DNA from: a virus
Lineage: Duplodnaviria > Caudoviricetes
Virus record (IMG/VR): IMGVR_UViG_3300032285_003957
Span: 1-64,000 of that record
Reading direction: 5' to 3' (one strand)
DNA length: 64,000 nucleotides
Positions 1,431 to 59,003 of this stretch are shown here, piece after piece (position 1 is the first letter of the stretch; every line of letters begins with the position of its first letter). Below the pieces are notes generated by a model, which did not search any database, was not told the DNA's origin, and was given only the letters and a program-made list of their open reading frames with translations. The position numbers and the translations under genes were made by a program.

Positions 1431-2123
1431 ATGAACATGAGGATACAGGCATTATTCATTTCGGACGTTCATCTTGGTTCCAAAGGCTCAAACGCTGAAC
1501 AAGTTCTACAAATTCTTAAGCATTACCAACCCGAATATCTATTCCTTGTGGGGGATATTGTGGATGGTTGGTTATTAAAGCGCAAATTCCGTTGGCCTCA
1601 GTCGCATACAAATGTATTAAGAAAGATATTATCTTATAGCAAGAACGGAACAAAGGTAATATACATACCAGGCAATCACGATGAGTTTATGCGTGATTAT
1701 GATGATTTTCATTTCGGGAATATTGAGATTCACAATGAGTATATTTGGAATAACACTTATATCACGCACGGAGATTTATACGATGGGGTCGTTAAATTGA
1801 AGTGGTTGGGGATTTTGGGTAGTGTTGGATACGATTTAGCCATCAGTATTGATCGCAGACTAAAATCTTGGGGATATAAGCGAAGTCTATCCAAATTCTT
1901 AAAGGATAAGGTAAAGGAAGCCGTTAAGTTTATAACATCATTTGAGGAGGAGATTGTTCGCCAGGGAATAAAACATAACTGCAGCACCGTTATTTGCGGT
2001 CACATTCATCATCCCGAGGACAAGTTAATTAACAATGTTAGATATTTAAATTCGGGGGATTGGATTGAAAATAACTCATATATCATATACGTAGATGGAG
2101 AATATACCGTTATTAAGGGATAA
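1431..2123 (+). CDS. PlcP/LpxH-like calcineurin-type metallophosphoesterase (UDP-2,3-diacylglucosamine diphosphatase-like)
   Basis: FISDVHLG, LVGDIVDGW, WPQSH, PGNHDEF, HGDLYD, CGHIH, NSGDWIE motifs. Confidence 0.85.
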   Translation: MNMRIQALFISDVHLGSKGSNAEQVLQILKHYQPEYLFLVGDIVDGWLLKRKFRWPQSHTNVLRKILSYSKNGTKVIYIPGNHDEFMRDYDDFHFGNIEIHNEYIWNNTYITHGDLYDGVVKLKWLGILGSVGYDLAISIDRRLKSWGYKRSLSKFLKDKVKEAVKFITSFEEEIVRQGIKHNCSTVICGHIHHPEDKLINNVRYLNSGDWIENNSYIIYVDGEYTVIKG

Positions 2124-2814
2124 TTTAACAATTGTCATTCCGTCGAAGAATGAGGGAATGAATTTATATCATTGTATAAGCAGCATTGCATCGCAGGTTA
2201 TGGGACAGGGGTTGAGGATTATTATTGCGGATTGCAGTGATGAGCGAAAGTCGTTTGATGTATTGGCGGAGATTAAGAGGGATTTTAAGTATTCGTTAAA
2301 TATTGAGATAATTGAGGGTGGATATCCCGCATATGGAAGAAAATCGGGGGCTGATTTGGTAAAGACGCCCTATGTTTTGTTTATGGATGCGGATATTATA
2401 TTATTGGATAGGAGGGTATTAGTGGATTGTTTGAATAAGACCTCGCATTTGACCACAGTTACCTTTTCGACCGATTACGGATACAATTGGATATATGGGG
2501 TTTTCACAAGCGCGCAGAGGGTAATGAAGTTTTTCGGGGATACATTTGCGATTGGTGGTTTTCAACTATTCAGAACGGAGATTTATAATTATACGGGCGG
2601 ATACAATCCAAATCATGTTTTTGCGGAGGATTATTATGTATCCAACAAGATTCATTCGCAGTTTTTTAATATACATAAGACCAAAGGGGTCTATACATCG
2701 GCCAGACGTTTTAAAAACAAGGGTTTATTCTATATGTTGGGCCTAATGATAAAATGTTGGTTCAATAGAAGAAACGAGTCATTTTACATAAAATCGCATA
2801 ACTACTGGAATTAA
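2095..2814 (+). CDS. glycosyltransferase family 2
   Basis: IVIPSKNE, IIIADCS, FMDAD (DxD), EDY, TSARRF. Confidence 0.85.
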   Translation: MENIPLLRDNLTIVIPSKNEGMNLYHCISSIASQVMGQGLRIIIADCSDERKSFDVLAEIKRDFKYSLNIEIIEGGYPAYGRKSGADLVKTPYVLFMDADIILLDRRVLVDCLNKTSHLTTVTFSTDYGYNWIYGVFTSAQRVMKFFGDTFAIGGFQLFRTEIYNYTGGYNPNHVFAEDYYVSNKIHSQFFNIHKTKGVYTSARRFKNKGLFYMLGLMIKCWFNRRNESFYIKSHNYWN

Positions 2815-3837: not shown

Positions 3838-4161
3838 ATGAAAAAGAAAAAACCCTTTGAGAAGATAATAAAGGAATGGAATGACGCTTCCCCTAAAGAA
3901 GTATGGGAAGGAGTTAGAGATAACTTTATATTCGGATTCTTGGGAGCCACCATTATTGTATTCATATCCACAAGAACGGATATAATGGTTCTTATGGTAT
4001 ATCTAACATATTATTTCTTTATGGGAAGAATTGTTAATCGTCCTAAGTATGTAACCGATTTGGGTAAGATGATTGTCTTTCCCATACCCTCAGCTTTGGG
4101 AGCTTTCACAGGATATAAATTGTCCTTTATTCTACAAGCACTTATAAACCATACAGTATAA
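3838..4161 (+). CDS. hypothetical membrane protein
   Basis: Two or three hydrophobic segments. Confidence 0.7.
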   Translation: MKKKKPFEKIIKEWNDASPKEVWEGVRDNFIFGFLGATIIVFISTRTDIMVLMVYLTYYFFMGRIVNRPKYVTDLGKMIVFPIPSALGAFTGYKLSFILQALINHTV

Positions 4162-4170
4162 TATATCGGT

Positions 4171-4990
4171 AAGCGAGGCGCTCCGACAGGAGTGGCGAGC
4201 CATACTATCTCCTGCTAATTCCCTGACTTCTACCTGACTATTCCCTGAAGCGAGACCCTCGACAGAGGGGCGAGCGTATAATATTCCCACCATACTACCC
4301 CATAAAATCACCCCTAAAAAAGTGCCGTTTTTGATACTAAAAACCCATATAAATTAGTCCTATTTTGCCAGCCATTCTGTCGTGATCTTTTTTTCCCACC
4401 GACATTGTGTCATATCTCGAAATTTTCGTCTTACATATATAATATCGCCATTTTGTGGAAAAAGTGGGGAAAAGTGGTAATCCGTGGGGATTGTCCCCTG
4501 TCCGAAGTAAAGAGCATATACAAAAAAAATTCCAGACTACCAAAAAAAGTTATCCACATTTTAAGTATTACGCTCGCCCCCTTGCGGTGGCTCGCTGCAT
4601 CCCGAGTAGCATGGCATATATAATTATATATTTTATAAGGCATATGTAATACGGCCCTAACCCCCTGAAGCGAGGCCGATAGGCCGAGCGTAATACTTGC
4701 TAACATTTTACTAACAATTGTAGTGCTCGCTCCACTGCGTTCCGCTCGCCCGCGGGGCCCGAATAAAGTTATCCACATTTTTATCACATACTTATCCCCA
4801 TGTAATACGGGATGAAGCGAGGCCGATAGGCCGAGCGCATAATTGTTAAAATTTTGTTGTTGTAGCAACGAATAGTTTTCTGGCAAGTATTACAGTCGCC
4901 GATGAGATATGGCGGATTATAAAAAACAAAGTTTGCTGGCAAGTAATACAAGCAAGTATGCTCGCTCGCCCTTTCGGTCGACCTCGCTGC
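4171..4990. repeat. cluster of seven AGCGA-hairpin-GAGCG elements (4171+, 4247+, 4571-, 4667+, 4725-, 4814+, 4960-)
   Basis: Conserved flanks around variable stems with GACA/GATA/GCAA/GAAA/GCA loops; 23-nt exact copies at 4667, 4814 and 17502. Confidence 0.85.
4454..4800. promoter_or_regulatory. DnaA-box cluster: 4550-4558 and 4769-4777 perfect; 4454-4462 TTTTCCACA on -; 4792-4800 one mismatch
   Basis: TTATCCACA / TTWTNCACA matches in non-coding DNA, with an AT-rich tract near 4613-4640. Confidence 0.65.
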
Positions 4991-5008
4991 GTGAAAATAA
5001 ATAATGTA

Positions 5009-5863
5009 TTACTTTACATGTGGGACTTCAGTCCAATACTCACTACCTACTTTAATGCCGTAGTTGTTCATGAACTTTGTGAATTCATAGAAGACCTGTT
5101 GTTCGAAATGGCTTCTGTCGCCGGGTTTTAATGCCAGTAAACTTTCACGGTCCTGATCTGTGATGGTAAAATGTAAATCTGTAATCTTTAACTTAAGCGT
5201 AGGAGTAATCTTATAGTTATGGGTTGCGTCCACAGTTGTAACCAACTCAGCATTATCTCCTACTTGGAAGTGGATAGTTACATTGGTCTCGGGTTGATTT
5301 TTCTCTAATGGAACAGTTAATTTACCCTTTCTAAGTTTTCTCATGTGGATGTTTGCGCGTGAGAACACGGCTTGTTGCATGTCGGCCGCATGGAAGAACT
5401 TCTTCAGCTGAGCTATTGCTTCAGGATGCAGCACGTAAATTTCATTGCTAATCTTGGAGGGGATGGATACAATTGGTGAGGATATCAGATACTGATGTCT
5501 TACATATGCGGCTAGAAGATTCAGATTTGGTTTCATAAGATCTACACCGTCGTATGACACGCCCTTTAATCCGCCGCTGAAGACAATATGTTGCACGCTG
5601 AATTTATCCGCTGCGGCATAATCATGCATCATTTCGTAATACGCGCTCATAGCATGCTGCAGCATGGACTCATGCACTTGGGGCTCCTTGATCAGGAGGA
5701 ACAATGCGAATTCTAATGGCGGCGGACCGTCAATTGGTTCTTTGGAGGTAGACTCTTGCACAACATAACTATGTAGTATTACACCGTTACCTTGGCCAAT
5801 CTCATGTCCCTTTAGCTCCTCATGGAGTTGTATAATAATGTCTCTTCTATCTTGCATTACCAT
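5009..5863 (-). CDS. hypothetical protein (GC-elevated orphan)
   Basis: ORF track 5009..5887, start moved to MVMQ; visibly higher GC than neighbours. Confidence 0.75.
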   Translation of the reverse strand: MVMQDRRDIIIQLHEELKGHEIGQGNGVILHSYVVQESTSKEPIDGPPPLEFALFLLIKEPQVHESMLQHAMSAYYEMMHDYAAADKFSVQHIVFSGGLKGVSYDGVDLMKPNLNLLAAYVRHQYLISSPIVSIPSKISNEIYVLHPEAIAQLKKFFHAADMQQAVFSRANIHMRKLRKGKLTVPLEKNQPETNVTIHFQVGDNAELVTTVDATHNYKITPTLKLKITDLHFTITDQDRESLLALKPGDRSHFEQQVFYEFTKFMNNYGIKVGSEYWTEVPHVK

Positions 5864-5929
5864 AAATATAATAAAAAAGGTCCCCATAAAATGGAAACCC
5901 TCTTTATTTTTTTTAGAATCCCGTATGTA

Positions 5930-6133
5930 TTACTTGGCAAGTAAAATGTTACGGTATGCAATCGCTTGACGCTTACTACTGAAGTTACGACTTACTTTAG
6001 TTCCGCCTACCACAGCTCTTACGCGATAAGATGTCCCATCGTGGTAAATGTTGTTTGAAACGCGGTTGTAAGTTGTTAGTGTTGTTGTCTTGCGGGTTGC
6101 AGTTTTTTTCATTCTGTTGGTTGTTGTTTTCAT
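5930..6133 (-). CDS. small basic AP2/integrase-type DNA-binding-domain-like protein
   Basis: NIYHDGTSYRVRAVVGGTKVSRNFSSKRQAIAYRN: three beta strands plus helix. Confidence 0.55.
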   Translation of the reverse strand: MKTTTNRMKKTATRKTTTLTTYNRVSNNIYHDGTSYRVRAVVGGTKVSRNFSSKRQAIAYRNILLAK

Positions 6134-6250
6134 GACATTTATTGTTTATAATAAAATATACACAAAAATGCCCGTAAAAAAAAATCAACAGCCAACTTTT
6201 TTCAATAAAGAGTTTTTGCCAGGAAACTATCGCATCCTGATCATCGCTGA

Positions 6251-6391
6251 TCATGCAGGTGGAATATACCAGTGTTCTCCATACTTGCTTTGCATGTAAT
6301 GGATATAACGACGGTGCTTCATTCCATTGTATAGGAATATGGTTAGATGGTAATCCACCCACCACTGCAATCTTTTGATTTGCTTTTTCAT
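6251..6391 (-). CDS. 46-aa hypothetical protein
   Basis: Manual translation MKKQIKRLQWWVDYHLTIFLYNGMKHRRYIHYMQSKYGEHWYIPPA*. Confidence 0.55.
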   Translation of the reverse strand: MKKQIKRLQWWVDYHLTIFLYNGMKHRRYIHYMQSKYGEHWYIPPA

Positions 6392-6451
6392 AATTGTGTT
6401 GGTTTAAGTATTTTTTGCCAGGAAACTATTGGGATGGTGATCAGGATCAGA

Positions 6452-6646
6452 TCAGATTTCCGTATGATAAGTTATCTCCTCATCAACTCTCTCCAAGTTG
6501 AATAGGTCTACTATCTCATTCAAAGCTTCGATTTTAGCTTTGGCAGCGGTTTCTAAAATTAATCCCATAGCCATCATGTGCTCATAGTGATTAATCTTGG
6601 ACATAATGTAGAGCTTCAGCGCAGCCCCGTTAATTGTGTTTGACAT
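6452..6646 (-). CDS. hypothetical protein
   Basis: ORF track; start moved to MSNT. Confidence 0.65.
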   Translation of the reverse strand: MSNTINGAALKLYIMSKINHYEHMMAMGLILETAAKAKIEALNEIVDLFNLERVDEEITYHTEI

Positions 6647-6657
6647 ATGTGTGTGTT

Positions 6658-6861
6658 TTATTTTTGCAAATCCCTCCACAAGCGGTAGTGGCCAGTAACT
6701 ATGGTCGTCTCCCTCAACGCATCTTTTTGAGATTTGATTCCCTCCTTATACAGGCGGAAAACCTTACCTCCATCAATTGAACACCATAATTCATAGGTGC
6801 CGTTGTCCGACGAGAACCGAATCTCGGTCTTAATCGGTGGTTTACTTTTCGTCTTTAACAT
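6658..6861 (-). CDS. hypothetical protein
   Basis: ORF track. Confidence 0.65.
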   Translation of the reverse strand: MLKTKSKPPIKTEIRFSSDNGTYELWCSIDGGKVFRLYKEGIKSQKDALRETTIVTGHYRLWRDLQK

Positions 6862-6887
6862 ATTATTGTTTTTTATAGTGTAACAAA

Positions 6888-7211
6888 CTAAGTCGTTAAA
6901 AGTTTATAATGACCATCAGTAATTAAATCCAACAGGTGTGCAGCCTCAAGCGCTTCCAACTGGTAGATGTTCTCTTCCCACTCATCTCCATTGTAATCCT
7001 TTCCAAGTAGAGTCATCCCGTTCTCGAGTTGCTCCACAATGAATCGCTCTTTCACATACTCGTGGTTGTAAACCTCCACTTCTTGGAAAACAATAAATGG
7101 ATTATTGAATTCAATAACAATACCATCTTCTTTGTGCTGCTCAAATGTATTTTCCACTTGATTGAGAAGTTTAATCCTAAGCTCCTCGACCTGCTGCTTA
7201 TATGTTTGCAT
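6888..7211 (-). CDS. hypothetical protein
   Basis: ORF track; start moved to MQTY. Confidence 0.7.
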   Translation of the reverse strand: MQTYKQQVEELRIKLLNQVENTFEQHKEDGIVIEFNNPFIVFQEVEVYNHEYVKERFIVEQLENGMTLLGKDYNGDEWEENIYQLEALEAAHLLDLITDGHYKLLTT

Positions 7212-7815
7212 TGTATTCTTTTTCGTTTTGACAAGACTCACAGATTTCATCACCCATATCCATTTCGGCTCCGCACTCGGGGCATTCGTCGTATTCTTCT
7301 TCTTCCAATAAGAAGTCAATTTTCATTGCCACAATATAACCACTTCTATCTCTCACAATGAATAAAGGGTAACCACCATCTCCAATACCTGACGAAGATA
7401 CAACACCATTGTCATACACTCCCCAAGAATCTTTGCTTAAGGTCATCTCACACATCTTCTCATACCATCTATCACCTTCTTCTTCTCTGTGAGGTAAAGT
7501 AAACGGAGGTTCTTCAGTTTGGATACCACTTGCTATTGCATCATTTCTGTAGCTGTCATACGAGAAGATACCAGCTTGACCTGAATCAACTCCTACTTGA
7601 CCTGGTGCTTCTTCCCAATCTAAAGCGCCGCTGTAATCGCTGTGTATTACCTGCAGTGAGTGAACGCGTTCGCCCCACCCGCTACAATCTCTTTTGTCTG
7701 CCTCGACATTGTATGTGCCGGGTAATACATTCTTTAATTTGACTTGGCACCAAGTAGGCTCAGTGTAACAAGGGTCGGATACCATAACTGTGTCTGTAAG
7801 TTGAATCTGTTTCAT
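7198..7815 (-). CDS. DUF4241-like protein with C-terminal zinc ribbon
   Basis: VSDPCY, GVDSGQAGIF, SGIGDGGYP; CPEC..CESC. Confidence 0.6.
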   Translation of the reverse strand: MKQIQLTDTVMVSDPCYTEPTWCQVKLKNVLPGTYNVEADKRDCSGWGERVHSLQVIHSDYSGALDWEEAPGQVGVDSGQAGIFSYDSYRNDAIASGIQTEEPPFTLPHREEEGDRWYEKMCEMTLSKDSWGVYDNGVVSSSGIGDGGYPLFIVRDRSGYIVAMKIDFLLEEEEYDECPECGAEMDMGDEICESCQNEKEYNANI

Positions 7816-7841
7816 TGTGTTTGAATTTTGGATTAAAATTA

Positions 7842-8363
7842 TTAAATGTTTTTGGTTCTACCAAATTTTTCTTTTAAAAGTTGTGTGACCTCTCTGCGTG
7901 TATTACTTATGGACTCCATCATTTTATCTTCCAAGCGAATTCGTCCCATACGAATAAGTTCGTCGCTCTCATAGAATTTTTCGATGTCAGTCCCAAGGTC
8001 TTCTACTTTACCAATAATATCCGAGATATCATTGCGGCTCATACCGTGTCTATAGAATAACGCGTAAGCATATACATACTCGTTACCTCGACCGCCGATA
8101 CGGAATTTAACATTGCTGTTAAGCTTAACATCTTCAAGTTGTCTTAACTGCATAATTATTTCTTCAAGCTTACACAACAATTGAATGTCGGACTTGTGCT
8201 CGTTGATTAAAGTTTTGTAGTGGTCCATAAAGATGTGAAGATCTTCCACACCATCATTTTTATAACGCTCACAATTTTTAATAAATGATTCGTATGCATC
8301 TTTCATTTTGTGAGAGCCGACGATTTTTGTGAACACGCCGTCGTTCTTTTGATATTTTACCAT
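7842..8363 (-). CDS. hypothetical protein
   Basis: ORF track. Confidence 0.75.
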   Translation of the reverse strand: MVKYQKNDGVFTKIVGSHKMKDAYESFIKNCERYKNDGVEDLHIFMDHYKTLINEHKSDIQLLCKLEEIIMQLRQLEDVKLNSNVKFRIGGRGNEYVYAYALFYRHGMSRNDISDIIGKVEDLGTDIEKFYESDELIRMGRIRLEDKMMESISNTRREVTQLLKEKFGRTKNI

Positions 8364-8599
8364 AATTGTTGTCCGTAGTTTAAAAGTATTCTAAAAGGAA
8401 GTAACAGATAGTCTTGCCAGGAAACATTTGACCCGGCGTATCCTGTTTTCAGGAAAATCTGTGTGTTGAATTCGTTACCTCCAAAATATGGGGTTGGCTT
8501 CACATATCCTGAGGATACACGAAATTCGCTTAGCCATTCTTCTTGAGTGAGTCTATCCTCTGGATAATACACACTCGCCACATTAAGCCTCTTGTCCAT
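8357..8599 (-). CDS. hypothetical protein
   Basis: ORF track; start moved to MDKR. Confidence 0.55.
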   Translation of the reverse strand: MDKRLNVASVYYPEDRLTQEEWLSEFRVSSGYVKPTPYFGGNEFNTQIFLKTGYAGSNVSWQDYLLLPFRILLNYGQQLW

Positions 8600-9227
8600 C
8601 TTTCTTTTGTGTTTTATAGTTATCAATAAAATCCTGCTTGATTTGTTCTTTTTCTTCTTTGGTGCAGAATGAAAATTCTTCTTCCAAATTTTTATCCAAA
8701 TCAAAATCTTCGTTGTCTATTTCATCATCACTCCAAGAATCCAAACGATACTCGACTTCATTCCAAAATTGGTCTCTATTGATGTTATATAATCCCTTCA
8801 TATAATCATCATATGTTTCTTCAGCTAATACACCTTCTTTATCAAATACAGAGAATCCAACAAAACCCATACCTGGTTCACTAAACTCTACACGAACTAC
8901 CACTTCAAATATCTGTGCAAGTTTTTCGCAGAATCTTTCTGGTGGTGACCAAGCCGTATCAAAACTTGCTGATATTTCGTCGTCATCATCCAAGTTCCAA
9001 CATCCGTTATCATCATAGAAGACATCCCACTTACATCCCCACCAAGCAATATGTGCATCATACCACTTCTGTTCATAATTCTCAGGGGTAATATCAGGAG
9101 GTAAACCTACAAGGGATACGAATACCCCTTGTTTGGTTTCAGCACAATTCTTTATGATATGTTTAATCATATCAAGTTTATCTTTATCACCTGTTATAGA
9201 GATAAAATTATCACACCAATTTGGCAT
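8583..9227 (-). CDS. DUF1281/YubB-type ferredoxin-like-fold protein
   Basis: MPNWCDN, WWGCKWD, FDTAWSPP, FSEPGMGFVG. Confidence 0.75.
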   Translation of the reverse strand: MPNWCDNFISITGDKDKLDMIKHIIKNCAETKQGVFVSLVGLPPDITPENYEQKWYDAHIAWWGCKWDVFYDDNGCWNLDDDDEISASFDTAWSPPERFCEKLAQIFEVVVRVEFSEPGMGFVGFSVFDKEGVLAEETYDDYMKGLYNINRDQFWNEVEYRLDSWSDDEIDNEDFDLDKNLEEEFSFCTKEEKEQIKQDFIDNYKTQKKDGQEA

Positions 9228-9270
9228 AACTATAATTTTTAAAATGTAAAATTAAATCGAATAAATTGTA

Positions 9271-9732
9271 TTACCAAGATGAATGATAGTAATAATCTCC
9301 ATCACCACCTTCTTCAGCCAATTCTTTTTCCAAGAATTTAATTGTGTTCTTTACATCCTCGTAATACCACTCATCATAGCGAGTGCTACCGAAGAAGAAA
9401 CCTTCAGCCACAGGTAATAACTCATCAGCCAATGAATGGTTCTCATCAATACGCTTAAGTAATACAAGTAATTCTTCAAGTGTTCCACTATCAACCCAAG
9501 CATCTCTACAATCATCTTCACCACCCTGACATCTATCAACAAACCATTTGTGAAGTGCATTGAACTTTCTCCAATACATCACTTCTTCGGTGATATAAGA
9601 AATACGCTTTGTTTGGATGGCTTCATATTTTTTACCACCTCGTTTAACTGATATACCCCACTCTTGAGATTTATCATTGTGCGACCAATTTTTAACATAG
9701 GTCTTTTTAGTAAGATACATATCTAATCCCAT
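9271..9732 (-). CDS. conserved phage hypothetical protein (MGLDMYL family)
   Basis: MGLDMYL, YWRKFNALHKWFV, GFFFGS, YYYHSSW. Confidence 0.8.
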   Translation of the reverse strand: MGLDMYLTKKTYVKNWSHNDKSQEWGISVKRGGKKYEAIQTKRISYITEEVMYWRKFNALHKWFVDRCQGGEDDCRDAWVDSGTLEELLVLLKRIDENHSLADELLPVAEGFFFGSTRYDEWYYEDVKNTIKFLEKELAEEGGDGDYYYHSSW

Positions 9733-9767
9733 AGTATTATGTTTTTTTTTGTAAAGGTAATTAAGAT

Positions 9768-10268
9768 TTATTGATTTACCAAATCGTAATCAAACTTTTT
9801 TGAAACAATTTTTTTCAAGTTATCGCTAATAGTTTGTTCAGGAAACATTGCAGCATAAAATTGAAATGCTGGTTGCCAATCTTCCCAATCACCATCACTT
9901 GAAAAATCAAATTGTGGTAAATGATTTGCAAGTGATATTAAACATACACATACAAAAAAGTCATAAGGCTTCCTTGCTGTCTTACAAAACTCGTTCTGTT
10001 CTTCTTCGTTGAAGTCAAAAACAAATGTTTCGTGGTCAAGCCATTTTGAAGCATCACCATTAAATCTAATACATTCAGCATTCAGTTCAGGGTGATACTT
10101 ACCAACGCCGTTGCGTAATGTAATTGGATGGTCATTAAAATGTCCTCCTGCTGTTGGCGAATGTTCAGGTAAGTTTTTCTTCATTGCTAATACTTCTTTT
10201 AAAACATCTTTGTAGCGAACCTTGTCGCCTGTTGTGGGTTTGTAACCCCAATAATGTGTGTAGCCCAT
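9768..10268 (-). CDS. conserved phage hypothetical protein (MGYTHYW family)
   Basis: MGYTHYW, FNG, HETF, FCKTARKPYD, SSDG. Confidence 0.8.
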   Translation of the reverse strand: MGYTHYWGYKPTTGDKVRYKDVLKEVLAMKKNLPEHSPTAGGHFNDHPITLRNGVGKYHPELNAECIRFNGDASKWLDHETFVFDFNEEEQNEFCKTARKPYDFFVCVCLISLANHLPQFDFSSDGDWEDWQPAFQFYAAMFPEQTISDNLKKIVSKKFDYDLVNQ

Positions 10269-10290
10269 ATGATTGTAATTTGTTTATATG

Positions 10291-10322
10291 CAAATGTAAA
10301 TCAAATAATCCATATACACAAA
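10291..10322 (-). promoter_or_regulatory. Bacteroidota sigma70 promoter TTTG-N20-TACATTTG
   Basis: Exact -33/-7 consensus; close variants at 16159-16190, 17367-17398, 18060-18090 and 18732-18763. Confidence 0.8.
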
Positions 10323-10366
10323 TTTTTTTTTAGAAATTTTTTTTGAACCTGATCACCTGTTAATTG

Positions 10367-10586
10367 TTTTCTGGCACAGCAGCCGTTCCAGGTGATCACT
10401 GGTTACAAGTTTTCTGGCACATAAAATGCCAGGAGAATGTTCGCTGCTGTTTAACGCTGCGGGAAAAACATTAAACAAAACCTTGCCAGAAAACTTGAAC
10501 CAGCTCGCCGTCTTCTGGATTTCTTGCCAGTAAACTTGTCCAGTACAGATCAGCTCAAGATGCAGGTGGAGGAAATTGCCAGGAAA
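10367..10586. repeat. CTGGCA..TGCCAG motif spacer (6 copies)
   Basis: CTGGCA at 10371, 10414; TGCCAG at 10427, 10484, 10525, 10577. Confidence 0.85.
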
Positions 10587-10625
10587 CATGTTACAGCTCA
10601 GGATGCGGGCTTCAGGTTTGGGCAT

Positions 10626-10655
10626 AAAAAAAGGGATGTCTTACGACACCCCTTA
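10626..10655 (-). terminator. intrinsic terminator
   Basis: Imperfect GGG..CCC hairpin followed by a T-run on the - strand. Confidence 0.55.
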
Positions 10656-10765
10656 TACTTACCAACACAAATTACTAACACATATAATCAAACACTGCAC
10701 AAATGTAGATAACTTTTATGAATTAAAAAAGTTTTCCACAAATTATTTTTTAACACAATATTTTA

Positions 10766-11023
10766 TTATTCATCAGCGTTGTTCCAAATTTCGTCAAAGT
10801 CATCGGTTTTTAATTCCTCCGTTGCTTGTCCGTCATTGTCTATAACTGACATAAATTCAATAACATCATCAACTTGTTCCCAACCAATGCTATCGTGTTT
10901 ACCTTCTTTAACAAACTTAATTGCTAATTCTTTTGCCTCCTCAAATGTTTCGGCTTCAATTTCAAAAGGTGTGCGATACCACGTCGTTACCTTTTGGTCT
11001 AACATAAAATCGTATGTTCCCAT
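10766..11023 (-). CDS. acidic hypothetical protein
   Basis: ORF track. Confidence 0.75.
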   Translation of the reverse strand: MGTYDFMLDQKVTTWYRTPFEIEAETFEEAKELAIKFVKEGKHDSIGWEQVDDVIEFMSVIDNDGQATEELKTDDFDEIWNNADE

Positions 11024-11221
11024 AATATTTTTTTTAGTTTAAAAAATAAAGTTGTTCTGGGACAACTTTAAAACCCCCTTTGCTTATCTTAACGAATGGG
11101 AAAAAAACCACACACATTTCATCGTAAGCAGATAAGCTATGTCTAAACCAACCGCAAGGCATCGGTGCAAGGTTTCAATAATAGAAATGGTGTGTGTGCT
11201 AAATCAAAACAGCCAAGAAAA

Positions 11222-11401
11222 TTAGTTTAAAAAATTAAAAGTAGGTTTGTCTTTAACAATCATCCATTCACAATTACTTAATGAATATTCCAAAGTAACT
11301 TCAATGAATTCTTCGTAATTATCATCAGGACAATTAACCAAATCCAATACATCAATGGATGAACTTTCAAAGTTTAGTATTACGGCGTATTTGTTATTCA
11401 T
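11222..11401 (-). CDS. 59-aa hypothetical protein
   Basis: Manual translation MNNKYAVILNFESSSIDVLD...PTFNFLN*. Confidence 0.6.
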   Translation of the reverse strand: MNNKYAVILNFESSSIDVLDLVNCPDDNYEEFIEVTLEYSLSNCEWMIVKDKPTFNFLN

Positions 11402-11714
11402 TTGAAATTCTTTTTTCGGTTTTCAATGTTTGTGCTTCATACTCTTGACACAAAAAATAAATTTCATCTAAAATGTCCTCACTTAAATTCTCATACAATT
11501 CTTCATAAGTTTCAATAGCGTCGCTACTGAATGAATTGGTGTGATACACATTAACCTCTACATAATCTTCGGTAAAGTATTCTATCAAACCAACTACACT
11601 TCCAATACTACCAACACAAGGGGAACTATCAAAGTTATCTAACTCCCCTAACGCAAAGCAACCATAAGTGCTTAGCAATTTTTTGATTTCGGATATTGTT
11701 TCTTCTTTTGTCAT
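11394..11714 (-). CDS. hypothetical protein
   Basis: ORF track; start moved to MTKEET. Confidence 0.7.
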   Translation of the reverse strand: MTKEETISEIKKLLSTYGCFALGELDNFDSSPCVGSIGSVVGLIEYFTEDYVEVNVYHTNSFSSDAIETYEELYENLSEDILDEIYFLCQEYEAQTLKTEKRISNE

Positions 11715-11719
11715 ACGAA

Positions 11720-11929
11720 TTAATTTAAAATGAATGGACAAGTTTTTGCTTTCTCTACTTTACCTTTGATACCATATTTCTTTTTGAAAAGGTGGATAGC
11801 TTCCTTCTGCGTGTAATCCCAATATTGTTGGTAGGTATTACCGAACCATATTACAATACAAATCCCACGCTGATATAATTGGATGTATCCAATTTCATCT
11901 TTTATCTTTTTCCATTGTTCTTTGGTCAT
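11720..11929 (-). CDS. hypothetical protein
   Basis: ORF track. Confidence 0.7.
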   Translation of the reverse strand: MTKEQWKKIKDEIGYIQLYQRGICIVIWFGNTYQQYWDYTQKEAIHLFKKKYGIKGKVEKAKTCPFILN

Positions 11930-11930
11930 A

Positions 11931-12128
11931 TTAATTTTTTTTAATCATCGTTTGTGAATACTCGGTTTCGTGTGTTGTATCAACGTGCTGACTTCCACGA
12001 AATCTATTTTGGTCGTGAACAACTACAACTTGGTGTGAACCCATTGGTTCCCAACCTTCCTTAATACTATTGCTTACTGCAACTGATAGTCCTTGTGGAC
12101 TACTTGATGATATTATTTTATATTCCAT
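11931..12128 (-). CDS. DUF1737-like protein
   Basis: YKII....GL...V...IKEGWEPMGS...YSQTMIK. Confidence 0.6.
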   Translation of the reverse strand: MEYKIISSSSPQGLSVAVSNSIKEGWEPMGSHQVVVVHDQNRFRGSQHVDTTHETEYSQTMIKKN

Positions 12129-12165
12129 AATGTAAAAGTAATTATGATTTTTTGATTTACCAAAT

Positions 12166-12384
12166 TTATCTATAAAGGGTTACATATTCTCCAAAGTATT
12201 CTTCGAATGTATTAACTGCGTTTTCGTAATCTCCGCTTGTCATACGACGAAAAAAGATTTCCGAATTAAGACCCAATTGTTTACATAGTCTTCCTCCAAT
12301 TCCTATTAGGTTGAAAACATTTCCGTCTGCACCCGTTAGGTCTATTTCAATTGTTTGCGGTTTTTCTTCTACTGACTTTATCAT
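12166..12384 (-). CDS. conserved phage hypothetical protein
   Basis: DLTGADGNVFNLIG...SGDY motif. Confidence 0.7.
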   Translation of the reverse strand: MIKSVEEKPQTIEIDLTGADGNVFNLIGIGGRLCKQLGLNSEIFFRRMTSGDYENAVNTFEEYFGEYVTLYR

Positions 12385-12394
12385 ATTTTTTTTT

Positions 12395-12610
12395 TTAGCT
12401 TAATAAATAATTTTTATCTTTTTTGAATTTTAAATGTCTGCACTCACCAATGGTTAAACCAATGAATTCTTTTGGTGTGAAACTAATTTCATCAGGGTAA
12501 TACTCAAACAAAAACTGCTCGGTGTTATCCTCCATTGTTACATACACTTGGGGCATTGGGTCAAAGAATGACTTTGGTTGGTCGGTAATACGACAAGAGA
12601 TTACTTTCAT
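12395..12610 (-). CDS. conserved phage hypothetical protein
   Basis: LFEYYPDEISFTPKEFIGLT. Confidence 0.7.
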   Translation of the reverse strand: MKVISCRITDQPKSFFDPMPQVYVTMEDNTEQFLFEYYPDEISFTPKEFIGLTIGECRHLKFKKDKNYLLS

Positions 12611-12621
12611 AATAATTGTTT

Positions 12622-12837
12622 TTAAATTTCGTTTTCAGCAAACATTTCGTTCCATTCTTCAGGTGTAATACCCGTCATTACAAACTCTCTTAACTCTTTG
12701 GGTAAGTGCGGAACAATGTTTTGAATTAATTCCCCGTTTTCACGACGACATTCAATTCTATCTAATTGTTCTTGTGTTACATCAACATCAAGGGTGTGGG
12801 ATAATCCACTTAATTGGCTAACTTTTGTTACTAACAT
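12622..12837 (-). CDS. conserved phage hypothetical protein
   Basis: LIQNIVPHL..ELREFVMTGITPEEW; start moved to MLVT. Confidence 0.7.
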   Translation of the reverse strand: MLVTKVSQLSGLSHTLDVDVTQEQLDRIECRRENGELIQNIVPHLPKELREFVMTGITPEEWNEMFAENEI

Positions 12838-12901
12838 AATTTGTGTTTTTTTTGTGAAGGTAAATAAGATATTTTGATTTACAAAATTTATTTTAAAAAA
12901 A

Positions 12902-13108
12902 TTATTGAATGGTTGTTGCGACAACTAATACTCTAATATGTTCTGCGTCGTTCGGTAATTCAAATCGTTCGCATAATTCATTCCATACAGAATCCTTAGC
13001 GAAATCATCACGATAGAATACAAAACTTGCACCATTGGGTTCAATGTTATCCCAATTGTGTTCGCCCAATTTTTTTACTTGGGGTTTAGTTAAGAATGCT
13101 TGTGTCAT
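12902..13108 (-). CDS. hypothetical protein
   Basis: ORF track. Confidence 0.65.
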   Translation of the reverse strand: MTQAFLTKPQVKKLGEHNWDNIEPNGASFVFYRDDFAKDSVWNELCERFELPNDAEHIRVLVVATTIQ

Positions 13109-13377
13109 TTTATTCTAATTTTTGAAATATAAACGTTTGTTAAATGAAACTTAAAACTTGACTTGGCGGAATTGAATAAAGGAACAAAACCTTCCAATGC
13201 TTCTTCAATGGTAAAGTCGTGTTCTTCTTCTATATGACATTCTTCATATAATTTATTAATAACACGCTCCTTGAAATCATCCGCATTAATTTCGTCAATA
13301 AATGAATTAACCTTTTCTTCCATTAACGCTTGGATTACATCTCTTGTGCATTGATAAGTTATTTCTTCTTTTGTCAT
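13105..13377 (-). CDS. hypothetical protein
   Basis: ORF track; start moved to MTKEEI. Confidence 0.65.
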   Translation of the reverse strand: MTKEEITYQCTRDVIQALMEEKVNSFIDEINADDFKERVINKLYEECHIEEEHDFTIEEALEGFVPLFNSAKSSFKFHLTNVYISKIRIK

Positions 13378-13479
13378 TGCTCTTTTATTTGAATGCAAGT
13401 TAAGTGTAATACTTTATATTACCAAATTTATTTTTATTTTTTTTCAAAATTTTTTGGGACGCCTGATCTGCTGCACAAG

Positions 13480-13592
13480 TTTTCTGGCACAGCAGCGGGA
13501 GCCCGGGATCCTGATATACTTTTCTGGCACTTGCCAGGAAACTCGTGGGATTATGATCACACTGCTGCAGGAGGTAATACATTTGCCAGCAG
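13480..13592. repeat. CTGGCA..TGCCAG motif spacer (4 copies)
   Basis: CTGGCA at 13484, 13524; TGCCAG at 13532, 13584. Confidence 0.8.
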
Positions 13593-13638
13593 ACTATCTT
13601 CCCGCCACGCGGCGGAAACACTTCAGCTTGTTCTAACA

Positions 13639-13670
13639 AAAAAAAAGCCCCGCATAAAAATGCAGGGCGA
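13639..13670 (-). terminator. intrinsic terminator
   Basis: GCCC..GGGC hairpin plus T-run on -. Confidence 0.55.
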
Positions 13671-13708
13671 ACTCAAAGTAATGTCCGTATTACTTCAGTT
13701 AACCTTCT

Positions 13709-14065
13709 TTAGTTTAGTATCGGCTCGTCAAGTGAATCTACTTCAGCTTTAATATCGATACCTTCTTTAATGTCTTTCTTATCTAATTTAAATAAACCCG
13801 TAACTATTGTTTTATCATAACTTGAATTTGTCAATTTACAATACACTTTAGTTAATTCATCGATAAGATAATCATACGCTTGGTCGCTTGGAGTATCGTC
13901 CTCCTCTGCCATCCATTTAGTAAAAAATTCTTCTTTAGAATAACCCCTTCTTTTTTCCAATTCAAGTTCGGCTATTCTATTAGTTAAGTCGTCAATCATT
14001 TTTAAATAATCAGGGACTTCGGCTAATGTTACCTCACCTTTGAATTTAAATTTTACTTTTGCCAT
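13709..14065 (-). CDS. hypothetical protein
   Basis: ORF track; start moved to MAKV. Confidence 0.7.
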   Translation of the reverse strand: MAKVKFKFKGEVTLAEVPDYLKMIDDLTNRIAELELEKRRGYSKEEFFTKWMAEEDDTPSDQAYDYLIDELTKVYCKLTNSSYDKTIVTGLFKLDKKDIKEGIDIKAEVDSLDEPILN

Positions 14066-14075
14066 TTTTTTAATT

Positions 14076-14654
14076 TTAATTGTTATGTAATTCGGCCAAT
14101 CGGCTTTCTTGAATCTTTTCATATTGTTCAACCATTGCTTTGGCTTCGCTTTCAGCTTCGGCTTCATCGTAATACCCACCACAACTTTCAATTACGTTTT
14201 TATGTTCGCAACCTAAATTACAAGTTTCGTTTTCATAAACTTCATATCTATAAACGTCACCCGTTAGATATTGGTCGTATGTTTTAACGTCGCTATCAAT
14301 AAGTTCGTTTAACTTGAAACTTTTATCTTCGCCAAACATTAACTTTAATTTTTCAAGTGTAATGAATACCCAACCAATTTGACCGCTATCCCATTGGCAA
14401 CCGAAAGGACTTGTGCTTATCGTAATACCGCTGTGGTCATACATATATAACGGCAGTATTGCTAAAACATTGTGGTCGCTTTCAATTTGTTCTTTTAATT
14501 CATCCCAACCATTAAAGTTATTGGACTTGTAGTCGTGCTTATCCCCAATGTTATACCTATTATGGAAACATACCATTGTGGTAACGTTGTCCCAATCCGT
14601 TCTTGGGTTCATTGAGTCGTCGTCGTTCGTAACTTGATAAGAATACTTTTTCAT
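14076..14654 (-). CDS. conserved phage hypothetical protein
   Basis: NPRTDWDN, LPLYMYDHSGITIST, WDSGQIGW, SCGGYY. Confidence 0.8.
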   Translation of the reverse strand: MKKYSYQVTNDDDSMNPRTDWDNVTTMVCFHNRYNIGDKHDYKSNNFNGWDELKEQIESDHNVLAILPLYMYDHSGITISTSPFGCQWDSGQIGWVFITLEKLKLMFGEDKSFKLNELIDSDVKTYDQYLTGDVYRYEVYENETCNLGCEHKNVIESCGGYYDEAEAESEAKAMVEQYEKIQESRLAELHNN

Positions 14655-14722
14655 TTGTGTTAAAATTTGTTGTTAAGTAATAAGCAAAGTAAATCAAATA
14701 TTTTGAAATAGAAAAATTTATT

Positions 14723-14929
14723 TTATAGGTCGCTATAAATAAATGTTTCAATCAAACGGACTAATTCGCCAATAGTCTTTTCTTCGTTTTCTTTGGTGTT
14801 ACCCCATTGCTTAAAGTCGCCACAATTATCAACATAAAAGTTAGTAATTGTTTTGTCAGGTAATAAAAAAGTTCCTACAATGCTATTATCGGCATTGAAT
14901 TTCATTTGTGCTTTGATTTTTTGTGTCAT
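14723..14929 (-). CDS. hypothetical protein
   Basis: ORF track; promoter-like sequence upstream. Confidence 0.65.
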   Translation of the reverse strand: MTQKIKAQMKFNADNSIVGTFLLPDKTITNFYVDNCGDFKQWGNTKENEEKTIGELVRLIETFIYSDL

Positions 14930-15033
14930 ATGTTTTTGTGTTTAGGGTATGAAGATAAATCAAATTTTTTAAAACACAAACTTTTTTCATATTTTTTTTC
15001 AAGATTTTTTGGCGTCATGTACCCAGTCGCAAG

Positions 15034-15117
15034 TTTTCTGGCAGGTGCCAGCAAAGTTACGGACGGGAAGATGCAGGTGGACAGCACAACAAAACTTGTA
15101 ATACTTTTGCCAGGAAA
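15034..15117. repeat. CTGGCA..TGCCAG motif spacer (3 copies)
   Basis: CTGGCA at 15038; TGCCAG at 15046, 15108. Confidence 0.8.
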
Positions 15118-15163
15118 GTTCCCGGATGGAAGATGCGTGGTTCGCGGGTATCCAAAATGTATG

Positions 15164-15199
15164 ACACAAAAAAAACCCCACTCTTGCGAGTGAGGTCTT
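15164..15199 (-). terminator. intrinsic terminator, near-identical copy at 16326-16361
   Basis: ACACA(n)CCCCACTCTT(G/T)CGAGTGAGGTCTT occurs twice. Confidence 0.7.
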
Positions 15200-15231
15200 G
15201 GGGGTTGGTTTGAGGAAAGCAAATGAAACCC

Positions 15232-15867
15232 TTATATCTTTACCTTTTGTTTTTTTGCTTTTCTTACGAACTTAACGGGTATTACCATATCCAACAAGCC
15301 ACTTTTCTTAGCTTGATAATATAATACTGAATTTTTTTCGTAAACCTCGTTGCGTGTCTTACAAGTTTTTAGAAACTCAATGATTTCTAAAGGTGCGTAT
15401 TTCACGTGTTCTTTAACTCCGAAAACTTGTGCCATTAACCCTCTGTTATATGCTCGTGCATATAATCTTGGATTGACTAACTTTAAGATACCCTTAGTTT
15501 CGTATTGACTCAACTCTGCAAGGATTTCTTCGTCAGTAAATTTTTGTTCGCCACCGAAACGCTTGGCAGGTAACAAAATGTCTAACCAACCTTTATCTTT
15601 TGCATACTCATACAATTTGTAGTTTGCTACGGATAATTTGCTTCTTGAGGGAACTTTGCTCTGCTCAATAATTAATTTAACTTGTTCGAAAGTTAAAGTT
15701 AATTCGGGTTTAACCTTTGCAGGTTTGATGTAAAGTTCATTTACAATTTTATGAAACTTTGCATACTCATACGCTAATTGATTAGCGTTTTTGAAATCGG
15801 TGAGGTTTTTATATTTTTTACTTTCCTCTTTGATTTCTTCAATAGACCACTTTTTAAATTGTGTCAT
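15232..15867 (-). CDS. basic helical-repeat protein (W(S/T)xE..LY..A repeats), putative DNA-binding
   Basis: Repeats such as WSIEEIKEESKKY..LAYEYAK and FTDEEILAELSQY..LYARA. Confidence 0.7.
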   Translation of the reverse strand: MTQFKKWSIEEIKEESKKYKNLTDFKNANQLAYEYAKFHKIVNELYIKPAKVKPELTLTFEQVKLIIEQSKVPSRSKLSVANYKLYEYAKDKGWLDILLPAKRFGGEQKFTDEEILAELSQYETKGILKLVNPRLYARAYNRGLMAQVFGVKEHVKYAPLEIIEFLKTCKTRNEVYEKNSVLYYQAKKSGLLDMVIPVKFVRKAKKQKVKI

Positions 15868-15956
15868 TTTTTGAAGTTTTAGTTAATAATTAAATTCTTG
15901 AACAAATATCGGTAGATGTTTTCATACTACCAAATTTTTTTTACTTTTTTTTTAAA

Positions 15957-16136
15957 TTATTTTTTAATCAGTTTTATTGTGCAGTATGTTGTAAAGAAAA
16001 TTGCTATTACAATTCCAACAATTATACTCATACTATAATGCTGAATATGTTTTACATATTCTCTATAAATCATAATGCGTAATGCTCCTAATGATAATAG
16101 TGAGCCGATTAATATTAATGTTGTTGTCTTACTCAT
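15957..16136 (-). CDS. small membrane protein
   Basis: Two TM segments; start moved to MSKT. Confidence 0.6.
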   Translation of the reverse strand: MSKTTTLILIGSLLSLGALRIMIYREYVKHIQHYSMSIIVGIVIAIFFTTYCTIKLIKK

Positions 16137-16243
16137 TGTATTACTTTTTAATGATGAGCAAAAATAAATCAAATATTCCATATACACAAATATTTTTTTA
16201 TAATAATTAAAATATTTTTTTCCCTGTGATCTGGATTAAATAC

Positions 16244-16285
16244 TTTTCTGGCAAAATATACCTGGTAAAAACACTTGCCAGAAAA
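16244..16285. repeat. CTGGCA..TGCCAG inverted pair
   Basis: TTTTCTGGCA at 16244 and TGCCAGAAAA at 16276. Confidence 0.8.
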
Positions 16286-16403
16286 CTTATGAGATGGATC
16301 AGGTCTGTGGACACAAGTCGTTGTAACACAAAAAAAACCCCACTCTTTCGAGTGAGGTCTTACCCTTTAAAACTAAAAACCATATAACCAAAAAACAAGT
16401 AGT

Positions 16404-16550
16404 CTACATATCGTATGCGAAGTTAGGGATAAAAAACCAAAACATAAACCAACTGAATAGAACAATTATACACAATGTTCCAATGCCACCCCAAAATTCT
16501 TTTGGGTTATCTTCGTAGGCTTCTTGTAATACTTTATATATCTCTTTCAT
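16404..16550 (-). CDS. small membrane protein
   Basis: ORF track; start moved to MKEI. Confidence 0.6.
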   Translation of the reverse strand: MKEIYKVLQEAYEDNPKEFWGGIGTLCIIVLFSWFMFWFFIPNFAYDM

Positions 16551-16551
16551 T

Positions 16552-16935
16552 TTAGTATGAATTATCGTTATATGAATTGTATGAATTGTAGTTAGGTTGA
16601 TTATTATAAACCCTTCTGCGTGGTGGTCTTTGTTGGTAGTGTGGCTGAGGTCTAAAGTTCGGGTGATTGTCATACGAAGTTTTGATTATTTCATCAAAAG
16701 TCGCACTTTCAAAATCCATATCGATAGGTTCGCCATTTTTAACACTCCACTCCATTTTCATAATTTCTTGGGGTGTTTCATCTACAAGGATATAATTATC
16801 TTTTGCAAATTGAATTTTCGTGCATTTTACTTGCGTGTTAGTATCTATCATTTCGTAGATACTCTCAATCTTATCAGTATTGATAATTGTAGGTCGGTTT
16901 TTACCAAAGTAGGTAACTTTAATTAAATTGCTCAT
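16552..16935 (-). CDS. FlbD-like N-terminal domain protein with low-complexity tail
   Basis: IKVT...IINTDKIESIYE...ILVDETPQEI. Confidence 0.5.
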   Translation of the reverse strand: MSNLIKVTYFGKNRPTIINTDKIESIYEMIDTNTQVKCTKIQFAKDNYILVDETPQEIMKMEWSVKNGEPIDMDFESATFDEIIKTSYDNHPNFRPQPHYQQRPPRRRVYNNQPNYNSYNSYNDNSY

Positions 16936-16937
16936 AA

Positions 16938-17117
16938 CTATAATTGATTGTTTAAATTTTTACTTTTTCTTTTTTTGAACATATAAAGGTTAATTTCCAA
17001 TGCAAAGAAAGGAATAATAATAGTTAATATTTCACTATCAATAATGAAACCTAACATAACACCTTGCCAATAAAAGTCAATGTGTAAATAATTGTTGCGA
17101 AAAATTTGCTTTGTCAT
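16938..17117 (-). CDS. 59-aa hypothetical membrane protein
   Basis: Manual translation MTKQIFRNNYLHIDFYWQGVMLGF... Confidence 0.5.
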   Translation of the reverse strand: MTKQIFRNNYLHIDFYWQGVMLGFIIDSEILTIIIPFFALEINLYMFKKRKSKNLNNQL

Positions 17118-17128
17118 TTGTTTAAAAA

Positions 17129-17332: not shown

Positions 17333-17482
17333 TTTAATGAATTTTTGATTGTTTATTAATATGCAGTAAAGGTAAATCAAATAATTTATATACACAAATA
17401 TTTTTTTATTTTTTTTCGTTAAAATTTTGTTAATGAAATTTTGTTGTTGCAATTTTTTTTGGCGTCCCGTGAAATTTTTTAG

Positions 17483-58931: not shown

Positions 58932-59003
58932 AAATTTTTTAGGATCGTATGGTTTTACATACAAACTTCCACCATTCAATTTTACTAAATTGAAAAAATA
59001 AAA

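Follow-up and report, generated by a model that had tools for sequence, protein, structure and literature searches.

A conserved gene-free DNA module with phased DnaA-box repeats and mini-hairpins, a candidate replication origin of giant T4-like lake phages

The stretch of DNA analysed here, called the window throughout, comprises bases 1–64000 of the 234,116-base-pair (bp) linear IMG/VR virus record IMGVR_UViG_3300032285_003957, which is estimated to be ~70% complete. Near its left end, genes of opposite strands converge on an interval without genes (4162–5008), referred to below as the hub, which follows the last plus-strand gene (end at 4161) and reaches up to the minus-strand early block, whose last gene ends at 5009. 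A gene-free stretch at this convergence had been described in an earlier reading of the bare sequence (the sequence-only reading), and it is confirmed here. With a GC content of 43.7% against 33.5% for the genome, the hub forms a GC-rich island. The major capsid protein of the record is of T4 type (Pfam Gp23, E = 2e-63), and by this Gp23-type capsid the source phage is T4-like. Three genomes were compared, namely this record (G000), IMGVR_UViG_3300042391_000634 (G001, 335,630 bp) and the near-complete G002 (323,865 bp). The last 136 nucleotides (nt) of G001 repeat its first 136 nt and it assembles as a circle, though IMG/VR lists it as linear.

Orthologues of the hub, gene-free as well, were found in more than 30 related contigs, including the circle-assembling genome of 335.6 kb. 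A pattern search with a 23-nt core of the hub recovered 12 lake-metagenome contigs and one viral contig. To avoid ascertainment through the core, a second sampling was made through the neighbouring gene for a 67-aa protein, which yielded 22 further viral loci. All 22 contain a gene-free stretch of 260–830 nt, and in 20 of them it starts no more than 1.6 kb downstream of the 67-aa gene. In the core-pattern contigs the right-hand genes are orthologous at 30–65% identity to window genes (5930–6133, 6251–6391, 6452–6679, 6888–7319, 7198–7815, 7842–8363 and 9271–9732). Left of the hub, the window carries a metallophosphoesterase (Metallophos) and GT2 glycosyltransferase pair (1431–2814, plus strand), which is kept in one core-pattern contig. 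The pair is conserved in the relative L140 at 88% and 53% identity. When compared with the related contig L012, the hub is collinear in the order hairpin, C-rich arm, core, minus-strand hairpin, A+T spacer, GTAATAC and hairpins, and a 47-nt core is identical at 44 of 47 positions. The core was found in none of 185,579 bacterial and archaeal genomes and was therefore not copied from a sampled host. Among cultured phages the sole match was short and coding, to Flavobacterium 'immuto' phages.

Six open reading frames (ORFs) of 40–151 aa lie inside the hub. The longest (4431–4886, minus strand, 151 aa) gave no Pfam or PHROG match, and no intact counterpart of it was seen in the relatives inspected. 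Similarity to the relatives is spread over several frames, as expected of conservation at the DNA level, and substitutions in the conserved stretch show no third-position bias as judged by eye. The 23-nt core has one variable base, a first codon position, although its invariance stems partly from how the loci were found. A coding gene in the hub was rejected on the missing family match, the several-frame similarity and the lack of third-position bias.

The two perfect and two near-perfect DnaA boxes reported from the sequence alone are all present. The perfect box TTATCCACA occurs on the plus strand at 4550–4558, in the 23-nt repeat CCAAAAAAAGTTATCCACATTTT, and at 4769–4777, in the second copy of the AAAGTTATCCACATTTT repeat; boxes with one mismatch lie at 4454–4462 (minus strand) and 4792–4800 (plus strand, TTATCCCCA). 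Over the whole window one-mismatch boxes are not enriched (33 versus 25.7 in shuffled sequences). Two of the eight perfect boxes of the 234-kb record fall inside the 847-bp hub, where 0.03 would be expected. All eight lie within the first 35 kb, and seven of them share the longer form GTTATCCACA. Each of the 13 core-anchored loci has a perfect TTATCCACA no more than 360 nt from the core, and 14 of the 22 protein-anchored loci have one downstream of their anchor gene; elsewhere in both locus sets the perfect box is rare.

A phased repeat array (4452–4486) with a period of 9–10 bp has GTGG or GTGGGG at 4455, 4464, 4474 and 4484; with TTCCCAC at 4284 and 4393, these words make up the switch from C-rich to G-rich sequence that had been noticed earlier. 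On the minus strand the array reads as 9–10-mers ending in CCAC, of which the first, TTTTCCACA, matches the DnaA box at 8 of 9 positions. The relatives have three to four such CCAC-ending 9–10-mers to the left of an invariant block. In 12 of 24 loci the array takes the form TTATCCACA-ATTCCCCAC-TTTCTCCCAC, with CCAC at −42, −32 and −22 from the invariant block and a perfect DnaA box as its first unit; the CCAC spacing is here exactly 10 bp, i.e., one helical turn. In the other 12 loci, this phage included, the whole array of ~45 nt is reverse-complemented, with GTGG at −32, −23 and −13, and alignments between the two orientations score 16–19 as reverse complement versus 6–9 in the same orientation. 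The DnaA unit of the inverted arrays is degenerate (GTGG-TAA), and separate perfect boxes lie 80–350 nt to the right. As the sequence of the array is kept and its orientation relative to fixed neighbours is not, it is best explained, as far as this pattern goes, by protein binding to double-stranded DNA and not by an RNA. The weaker array sites match the DnaA box at 5–6 of 9 positions and may belong to a phage protein.

To the right of the array follows the invariant block GGGATTGTCCC with a conserved tail (4487–4520), which includes a small weak hairpin, ..CGAA.. and a ..GACCAT-like word. GGGATTGWCCC occurs exactly once each in G000, G001 and G002, and the region of the invariant block is conserved in 20 distinct sequences. 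Judged from these comparisons, the hub is a genuine control module that is present once per genome and conserved throughout a clade of giant lake phages.

The hub also contains a family of mini-hairpins of the form GCGAG-stem/loop-CGAGC, with four copies on the plus strand and three on the minus strand. The GCGAG..CGAGC pattern has 11 matches (10 sites) in the window versus 0.06 expected, and three real copies exist elsewhere in the 234 kb. H1 (4173–4200, plus) has a GCGA..GAGC base with tandem G·A and the loop GACA, starts 12 nt past the stop codon of the plus-strand block and aligns with the first hairpin of L012. H2 (4250–4275, plus) reads CCCTGAA-GCGAG..CGAGC-GTATAAT and has the loop GACA. 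H3 (4572–4595, minus, loop GCAA) is the orthologous minus-strand hairpin right of the core, and H4 (4670–4689, plus, loop GATA) is identical to H6 (4817–4836, plus; GGGATGAA-GCGAG..CGAGC-GCATAAT). H5 (4725–4749, minus) is the weakest member, with poor pairing, and H7 (4960–4987, minus, loop GAAA) lies 21 nt past the stop codon of the minus-strand gene 5009–5887. A direct repeat accompanied by a 23-nt hairpin had been proposed for this part of the hub. The direct repeat holds, with ATGTAATACGG at 4644–4654 and, preceding H6, at 4800–4810, but the hairpin is really an identical unit of 25 nt (4666–4690 and 4813–4837) that belongs to the seven-member family.

Of the three dispersed copies, one (1369–1385, plus) has the apex GCGAAGC and abuts the stop codon of the ORF at 1045–1368. 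Another (17505–17524, plus) is the same as H4 and H6, is flanked by an inverted CTGGCA/TGCCAG pair within a spacer of the early genes and is antisense to local transcription. The last (23422–23438, minus) has the apex GCGCAGC and is antisense to the local plus-strand genes. That two of the three are antisense argues against a role in mRNA. The exact H4 hairpin was not found in viral contigs, and a search with a loose hairpin pattern was discarded because it returned mainly chance matches in GC-rich contigs.

Across clades the general unit consists of (CC)CTGAAG or GGATGAAG, a GC-rich stem with its loop, and CG(T/C)ATAAT or CGTAATAC. TGAAG-hairpin-GTAAT units occur hardly anywhere but in the hub (all three of those in G001 and seven of the ten in this record). 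The stems themselves are wholly different between clades (GCGAGGCC.., GGGGTCC.. and GGGAGGACTC..) and show swapped pairs between close relatives (GGGGTCC/GGACCCC versus GGGGACC/GGTCCCC); the hairpin right of the core, compared in 16 loci, has at least 10 different stems, with folding energies of −11 to −19 kcal/mol throughout. Aligned by sequence, the orthologous hairpins are too irregular for RNAalifold, and the covariation therefore comes from per-sequence folds. Many hairpins contain tandem G·A in one of two contexts, GCGA..GAGC or GGGA..GACC, and the sense-strand loops are mostly GAA, GTA, GCA, GTTA, GATA, GACA, GCAA or GAAA, with two AAC, one ATA and one flipped TTC as exceptions. Folding with DNA parameters favours the sense over the antisense strand in each of the 10 copies. 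The relatives inspected have a minus-strand copy right of the core and plus-strand copies past the A+T spacer. The hub hairpins, too, lie on opposite strands, with their 5′ sides facing the A+T-rich spacer. Between L012 (1248–1264 and 1504–1530) and the near-identical L139, one palindromic hairpin is flipped (loop TTC versus GAA) and another has given way to a copy of a different hairpin between unchanged flanks. Such changes suggest that the hub hairpins undergo gene conversion or template switching among themselves.

Several shorter words complete the hub. The AT-only tract reported earlier does exist (23 nt, 4616–4638, between the minus-strand H3 and the plus-strand H4), and most aligned relatives have an A+T-rich spacer at its position. 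Its composition is ordinary, with 24 such runs in the genome and 47% of 60-nt genome windows being as AT-rich or more. The C-rich left arm (4284–4399, plus) contains the two TTCCCAC words, ACCCC words and the conserved GCCGTTTTTGATA (4324–4336) and CTGTCGTGATC (4377–4387). CTGGCAAGTA(T/A)TAC was confirmed twice, at 4880 and 4936, and these sites are members of the TGCCAGNAAA family of early-gene spacers. The corresponding minus-strand sites of the form TGCCAG(A/C)AAACT (4874–4894 and 4930–4950) read GTA(A/T)TACTTGCCAG.. and belong to the same early-spacer motif family; the hubs of relatives carry an equivalent TTGCCAGACAATAT. Besides the first ATGTAATACGG copy at 4644, GTAWTAC words start at 4565, 4690, 4802, 4887, 4943 and 5006, and there are seven hub sites versus 0.24 expected. 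The 13-mer TGCCAG(A/G/C)AAA(C/G)T(T/A) occurs ~27 times in early-gene spacers, in window 4880–19694 and in a cluster at 215–225 kb. It often forms inverted pairs 2–40 nt apart and is placed between each terminator and the next promoter. In L012 (1400–1720) and L143 the right half of the hub has an extra repeat, (A/T)GTTGACCGGAT, in 5–8 copies, which is absent from the hub of the window.

The 67-aa protein (5930–6133, minus) is a basic early protein whose gene stays beside the hub in every syntenic relative, separated from it by a variable gene slot. Its N-terminus is basic and threonine-rich, and 11 close homologues were found. The structural model shows a beta-sheet of four strands packed against a C-terminal helix, with a pLDDT of ~90 over residues 21–67. 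The best fold matches were AP2, the ERF GCC-box domain and the arm-type N-domains of the HPI, Tn916 and lambda integrases, all of them weak (Z ≤ 4.9, Foldseek E ≥ 0.39). Language-model neighbours were Integrase_DNA and Arm-DNA-bind_4 with a score of ~0.8, which has the value of a lead. There was no Pfam match, and a sequence search of the PDB gave chance-level matches only. On its modelled fold the protein is at most a candidate reader of the hub repeats. In the window the variable slot is filled by a 292-aa gene (5009–5887, minus), for which no family match was obtained and through which no relatives were found; the relatives have other genes or none in this place.

A tyrosine integrase (PF00589) was absent from G000, G001 and G002 in a search whose positive controls were detected. 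Since the genomes have no integrase, the hub is not an attP site, and this candidate was dropped. Five early promoters of the minus strand are near-identical, TTTGTGTATATAAATTATTTGATTTACnTTT(G/A) (10291–10322, 16159–16190, 17367–17398, 18060–18090 and 18732–18763). They match TTTG-N20-TAnnTTT(G/A), the promoter pattern of Bacteroidota, and so point to a host of Bacteroidota type. Late genes have (A/G)TATTTATA upstream, read on the coding strand (window 19000–64000 and the rest of the record), although this word is the reverse complement of the T4 late-promoter word TATAAATA. A GOLLD RNA (302 bits), a transfer-messenger RNA and an array of 13 transfer RNAs are grouped on the minus strand (59003–59411, 56723–57119 and 60886–63116, respectively).

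The hub is a single-copy DNA element, acting in cis, of T4-like lake phages that form one clade and have genomes of ~320–335 kb. Among the roles considered for it, a replication origin seems to us the most likely, with a chance that we place somewhat short of even. An origin assisted by host DnaA/PriA had been part of the sequence-only reading. An origin gains in probability from the single copy, the conserved order, the phased array with its perfect or degenerate DnaA box, the perfect boxes in or near the hub of most relatives and the hairpins of a class known from single-stranded-DNA initiation sites; the arguments from the AT tract and from skew fail. The order of elements is kept between phages whose syntenic proteins are only 30–65% identical. 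In the mechanism that we envisage, an initiator binding double-stranded DNA would coat the phased array along one helix face, thereby opening the neighbouring spacer. This initiator could be host DnaA, the adjoining AP2/integrase-arm-like protein, or both. Once single-stranded, the G·A-zipped, GNA- or GNNA-capped hairpins would fold on each strand, and the folded hairpins might then act as single-strand initiation (ssi) signals for priming or helicase loading, like those of G4 ori(c) and RSF1010 ssiA/ssiB.

Several observations weigh against an origin at the hub. A GC-skew check places the hub at a local cumulative maximum, the polarity of a convergence or terminus, and not at a minimum as for an origin; the cumulative skew of the record is lowest at 18–20 kb. 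Taken in 5-kb windows, the skew of the complete genome G001 follows the coding strand (r = 0.85), and there too the hub lies at a convergence and forms a local maximum. The skew thus reports transcription and lends the origin no support, and for T4-like phages such a test is of low power. Perfect DnaA boxes form another cluster at the divergent end of the early block (18896 and 18916, 20 bp apart and spanning 18896–18924, and 19649–19657), which is conserved in G001 (40255/40270, spanning 40255–40278) and sits at the global skew minimum. Replication might really start from this cluster, or the boxes of both clusters might have a regulatory role. T4 origins have been described at divergences, whereas the hub occupies a convergence. 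To this must be added that the A+T tract is compositionally unremarkable in a GC-rich hub, that the hub of the near-complete G002 has only a degenerate DnaA box, that searches of the phage for known initiators gave no Rep_3 and no DnaA domain IV, and that the 67-aa protein can be assigned its fold only weakly (Z ≤ 4.9).

The alternative that survives best, unlikely as we consider it but still to be taken seriously, is a regulatory boundary of the early region with no role in replication. The array, GTAATAC and TGCCAG sites would then be operators for a phage regulator (e.g., the 67-aa protein) or for host DnaA acting as a transcription factor, with hairpins that insulate the hub or make the 3′ ends of the two operons running into it more stable. 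Such a boundary would fit the location of the hub, always at the distal end of the minus-strand early block, the DnaA boxes at both ends of that block here and in G001, and the TGCCAG motifs that the hub has in common with early-gene spacers. H1 and H7 come right after the last stop codons, as the copy at 1369 abuts one, and cassettes of PeSL type are known from T4-like phages (PMC4122927). The ordinary terminators of this phage, however, are hairpins with T-runs, and none of the seven family hairpins in the hub has one; the single terminator-like scan match in the hub (4971–4950, minus; tail with 5 T in 8) just clips the edge of H7. The hub hairpins were accordingly rejected as ordinary terminators, and a PeSL cassette or intrinsic terminator was rejected on the absent T-run and the lack of a promoter in the hub. 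Indeed, neither a host-type promoter (TTTG-N18-22-TAnnTTT(G/A)) nor a late promoter was found inside the hub that could serve regulation, although early operons do read into it. The hubs of L006 and L012 are already bracketed by conventional terminators, and convergence is not universal, since L142 has a divergent gene on the left of its hub. The antisense position of two of the three dispersed hairpins also tells against a boundary function, and a single copy per genome would be unusual for a family of terminators or operators.

Clearly improbable is that the hub holds one or several non-coding RNA genes, with hairpins and core forming the structure of a transcript made from it. Hairpins that are strand-specific and show compensatory changes would fold in RNA too, tandem G·A in a CGAG context is also stable in RNA, and several relatives have a terminator-like small hairpin with a T-rich tail after the invariant block. 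Yet no noteworthy Rfam match to the hub was obtained even at E ≤ 10, the Polynucleobacter-1 RNA (RF01718) is absent from the three genomes, and RNAalifold, applied to the conserved 130 nt of 20 distinct sequences, gave three invariant pairs and no covariation. The most conserved element, the array, is inverted in half of the clade, the hairpins occur on both strands in variable number and position, and host-type and late promoters are missing. GNA triloops and GTTA, GATA and GACA loops are, moreover, typical of DNA mini-hairpins. By these comparisons the module is non-coding and not RNA-like.

Slimmer still is the chance that the hub and the cluster at ~18.9 kb are a sink for host DnaA, which they would titrate or inactivate as the phage genome amplifies, thereby stopping host initiation in the manner of E. 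coli datA. The conserved perfect boxes, with phased weaker CCAC sites and a concentration of boxes in the early region of two genomes, would suit such a sink, as would the fact that the phage encodes no DnaA-type DNA-binding domain of its own. It would leave the hairpins, the GGGATTGWCCC block and the GTAATAC words unexplained, the hub of G002 lacks a perfect box, and the proposal is purely inferential.

We give a very low probability to a packaging site or physical genome end. The sequence-only reading had offered the edge of a long terminal repeat as its second option, to which a single-copy, repeat-rich, non-coding site might correspond, and three related metagenome contigs do end no more than 100 nt from the core. 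They do so at three different positions (−14, −22 and −96), and the sequence left of the core differs between relatives, which makes assembly breaks a possible cause of these ends. No second copy of the hub exists in the three genomes, the hub of G001 lies 25 kb from the contig break, inside the circle, and that of G002 is at 174 kb. The phage has a Gp23-type capsid, and the T4 genome is circularly permuted without defined ends (PMC3016281). The missing second copy, the internal hub of a circular assembly, the differing contig ends and the T4-like nature of the phage thus leave a terminal-repeat edge unsupported. That the hub is functionless debris of recombination cassettes, i.e., decayed PeSL-like spacers, is hardly credible, for all the hairpins exchanged and flipped between near-identical strains and the variable left flank, as the order of elements, together with a block that is near-invariant in every recovered locus, is kept across phages with 30–65% identity of the syntenic proteins.

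For an origin, the closest parallel within T4-type phages is T4 oriE, whose evenly spaced iterons are conserved in syntenic relatives; active T4 origins lie at transcription switches, share no motif, and the role of the oriE iterons is undefined (PMC3016281). Like the repEA/repEB region of oriE, the hub belongs to a T4-type phage, has evenly spaced short direct repeats of unproven function near a strand switch and is conserved in synteny (24 loci here). The oriE repeats are 12 nt long and lie at a divergence, whereas the hub has 9–10-mers at a 10-bp period, including a DnaA-box unit, at a convergence, together with mini-hairpins and without an early promoter having been found. Dependence on a nearby early promoter/RepEB is a further mark of oriE; T4 oriF and oriG are R-loop origins with a middle-mode promoter followed by a DNA unwinding element, and the promoter scans of the hub, which covered the host and late types, found neither.

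Origins with DnaA boxes, such as oriC, P1 oriR and those of iteron plasmids, resemble the hub in having a perfect TTATCCACA beside phased weaker sites, repeats and an A+T-rich spacer. In oriC, the layout comprises DnaA boxes, phased weaker sites and an A+T-rich spacer. The hub differs in its ordinary A+T tract, in the lack of replication-type skew and in that no plasmid-type initiator was found.

The hairpins resemble a mini-hairpin class, GCGNAGC/GCGNNAGC with GTTA accepted, that includes the primase sites of G4, St-1 and alpha3, RSF1010 ssiA (CCGAAGG) and the promoters of the N4 virion RNA polymerase (PMC13037366). The ori(c) sites of G4, St-1 and alpha3 and ssiA/ssiB of RSF1010 oriV share with the hub strand-specific GNA/GNNA-capped hairpins with conserved flanks and copies on opposite strands. 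In RSF1010 iterons adjoin the hairpins, as in the hub, and the apexes CCGAAGG and CCGTTAGG are literally present in relatives. Unlike these ssi systems, the hub has 3–7 hairpin copies, many with tandem G·A, in a 335-kb double-stranded-DNA phage, and a link to a RepB′-type primase would be hypothetical. The N4 promoters similarly have a short GC stem and a 3-nt purine-rich loop, lie on one strand and have conserved flanks. They differ in that no T7/N4-like RNA polymerase (PF00940) was detected in the record and its two (near-)complete relatives, in a search made without a positive control and for a family in which the N4 enzyme is very divergent. PeSL cassettes of T4-type phages are likewise repeated, non-coding stem-loop units of hyperplastic early regions that are homogenised or exchanged between strains (PMC4122927), while the hub hairpins have no T-run or adjoining early promoter and keep to one locus. 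In this phage it is the early-gene spacers at 10–19 kb that are truly PeSL-like.

Taken to its most specific form, the origin reading would describe a hybrid origin in giant T4-like phages of Bacteroidota-type hosts, of a kind undescribed for any T4 relative. DnaA and/or a tiny phage protein of AP2/integrase-arm-like fold would recognise an array of iterons that is phased at 10 bp, seeded by a host DnaA box and functional in either orientation, and paired G·A-zipped hairpins on opposite strands would provide the ssi signals. We regard this full scheme as rather doubtful. How T4-type phages choose their origins is still poorly understood, and we know of no mapped origin for the uncultured lake relatives of T4 with genomes of 300 kb and more. 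For these phages the hub is a single-copy candidate, sharply defined and deeply conserved, with three parts, namely the DnaA-box/CCAC array, the small neighbouring putative DNA-binding protein and the mini-hairpins, and it could serve as a sequence landmark for genome comparison within the clade. If the hybrid origin is true, a lytic T4-like phage would recruit host DnaA, and initiation signals made of DNA hairpins with GNA/GNNA loops and tandem G·A would extend from small single-stranded-DNA phages and plasmids to jumbo double-stranded-DNA phages.

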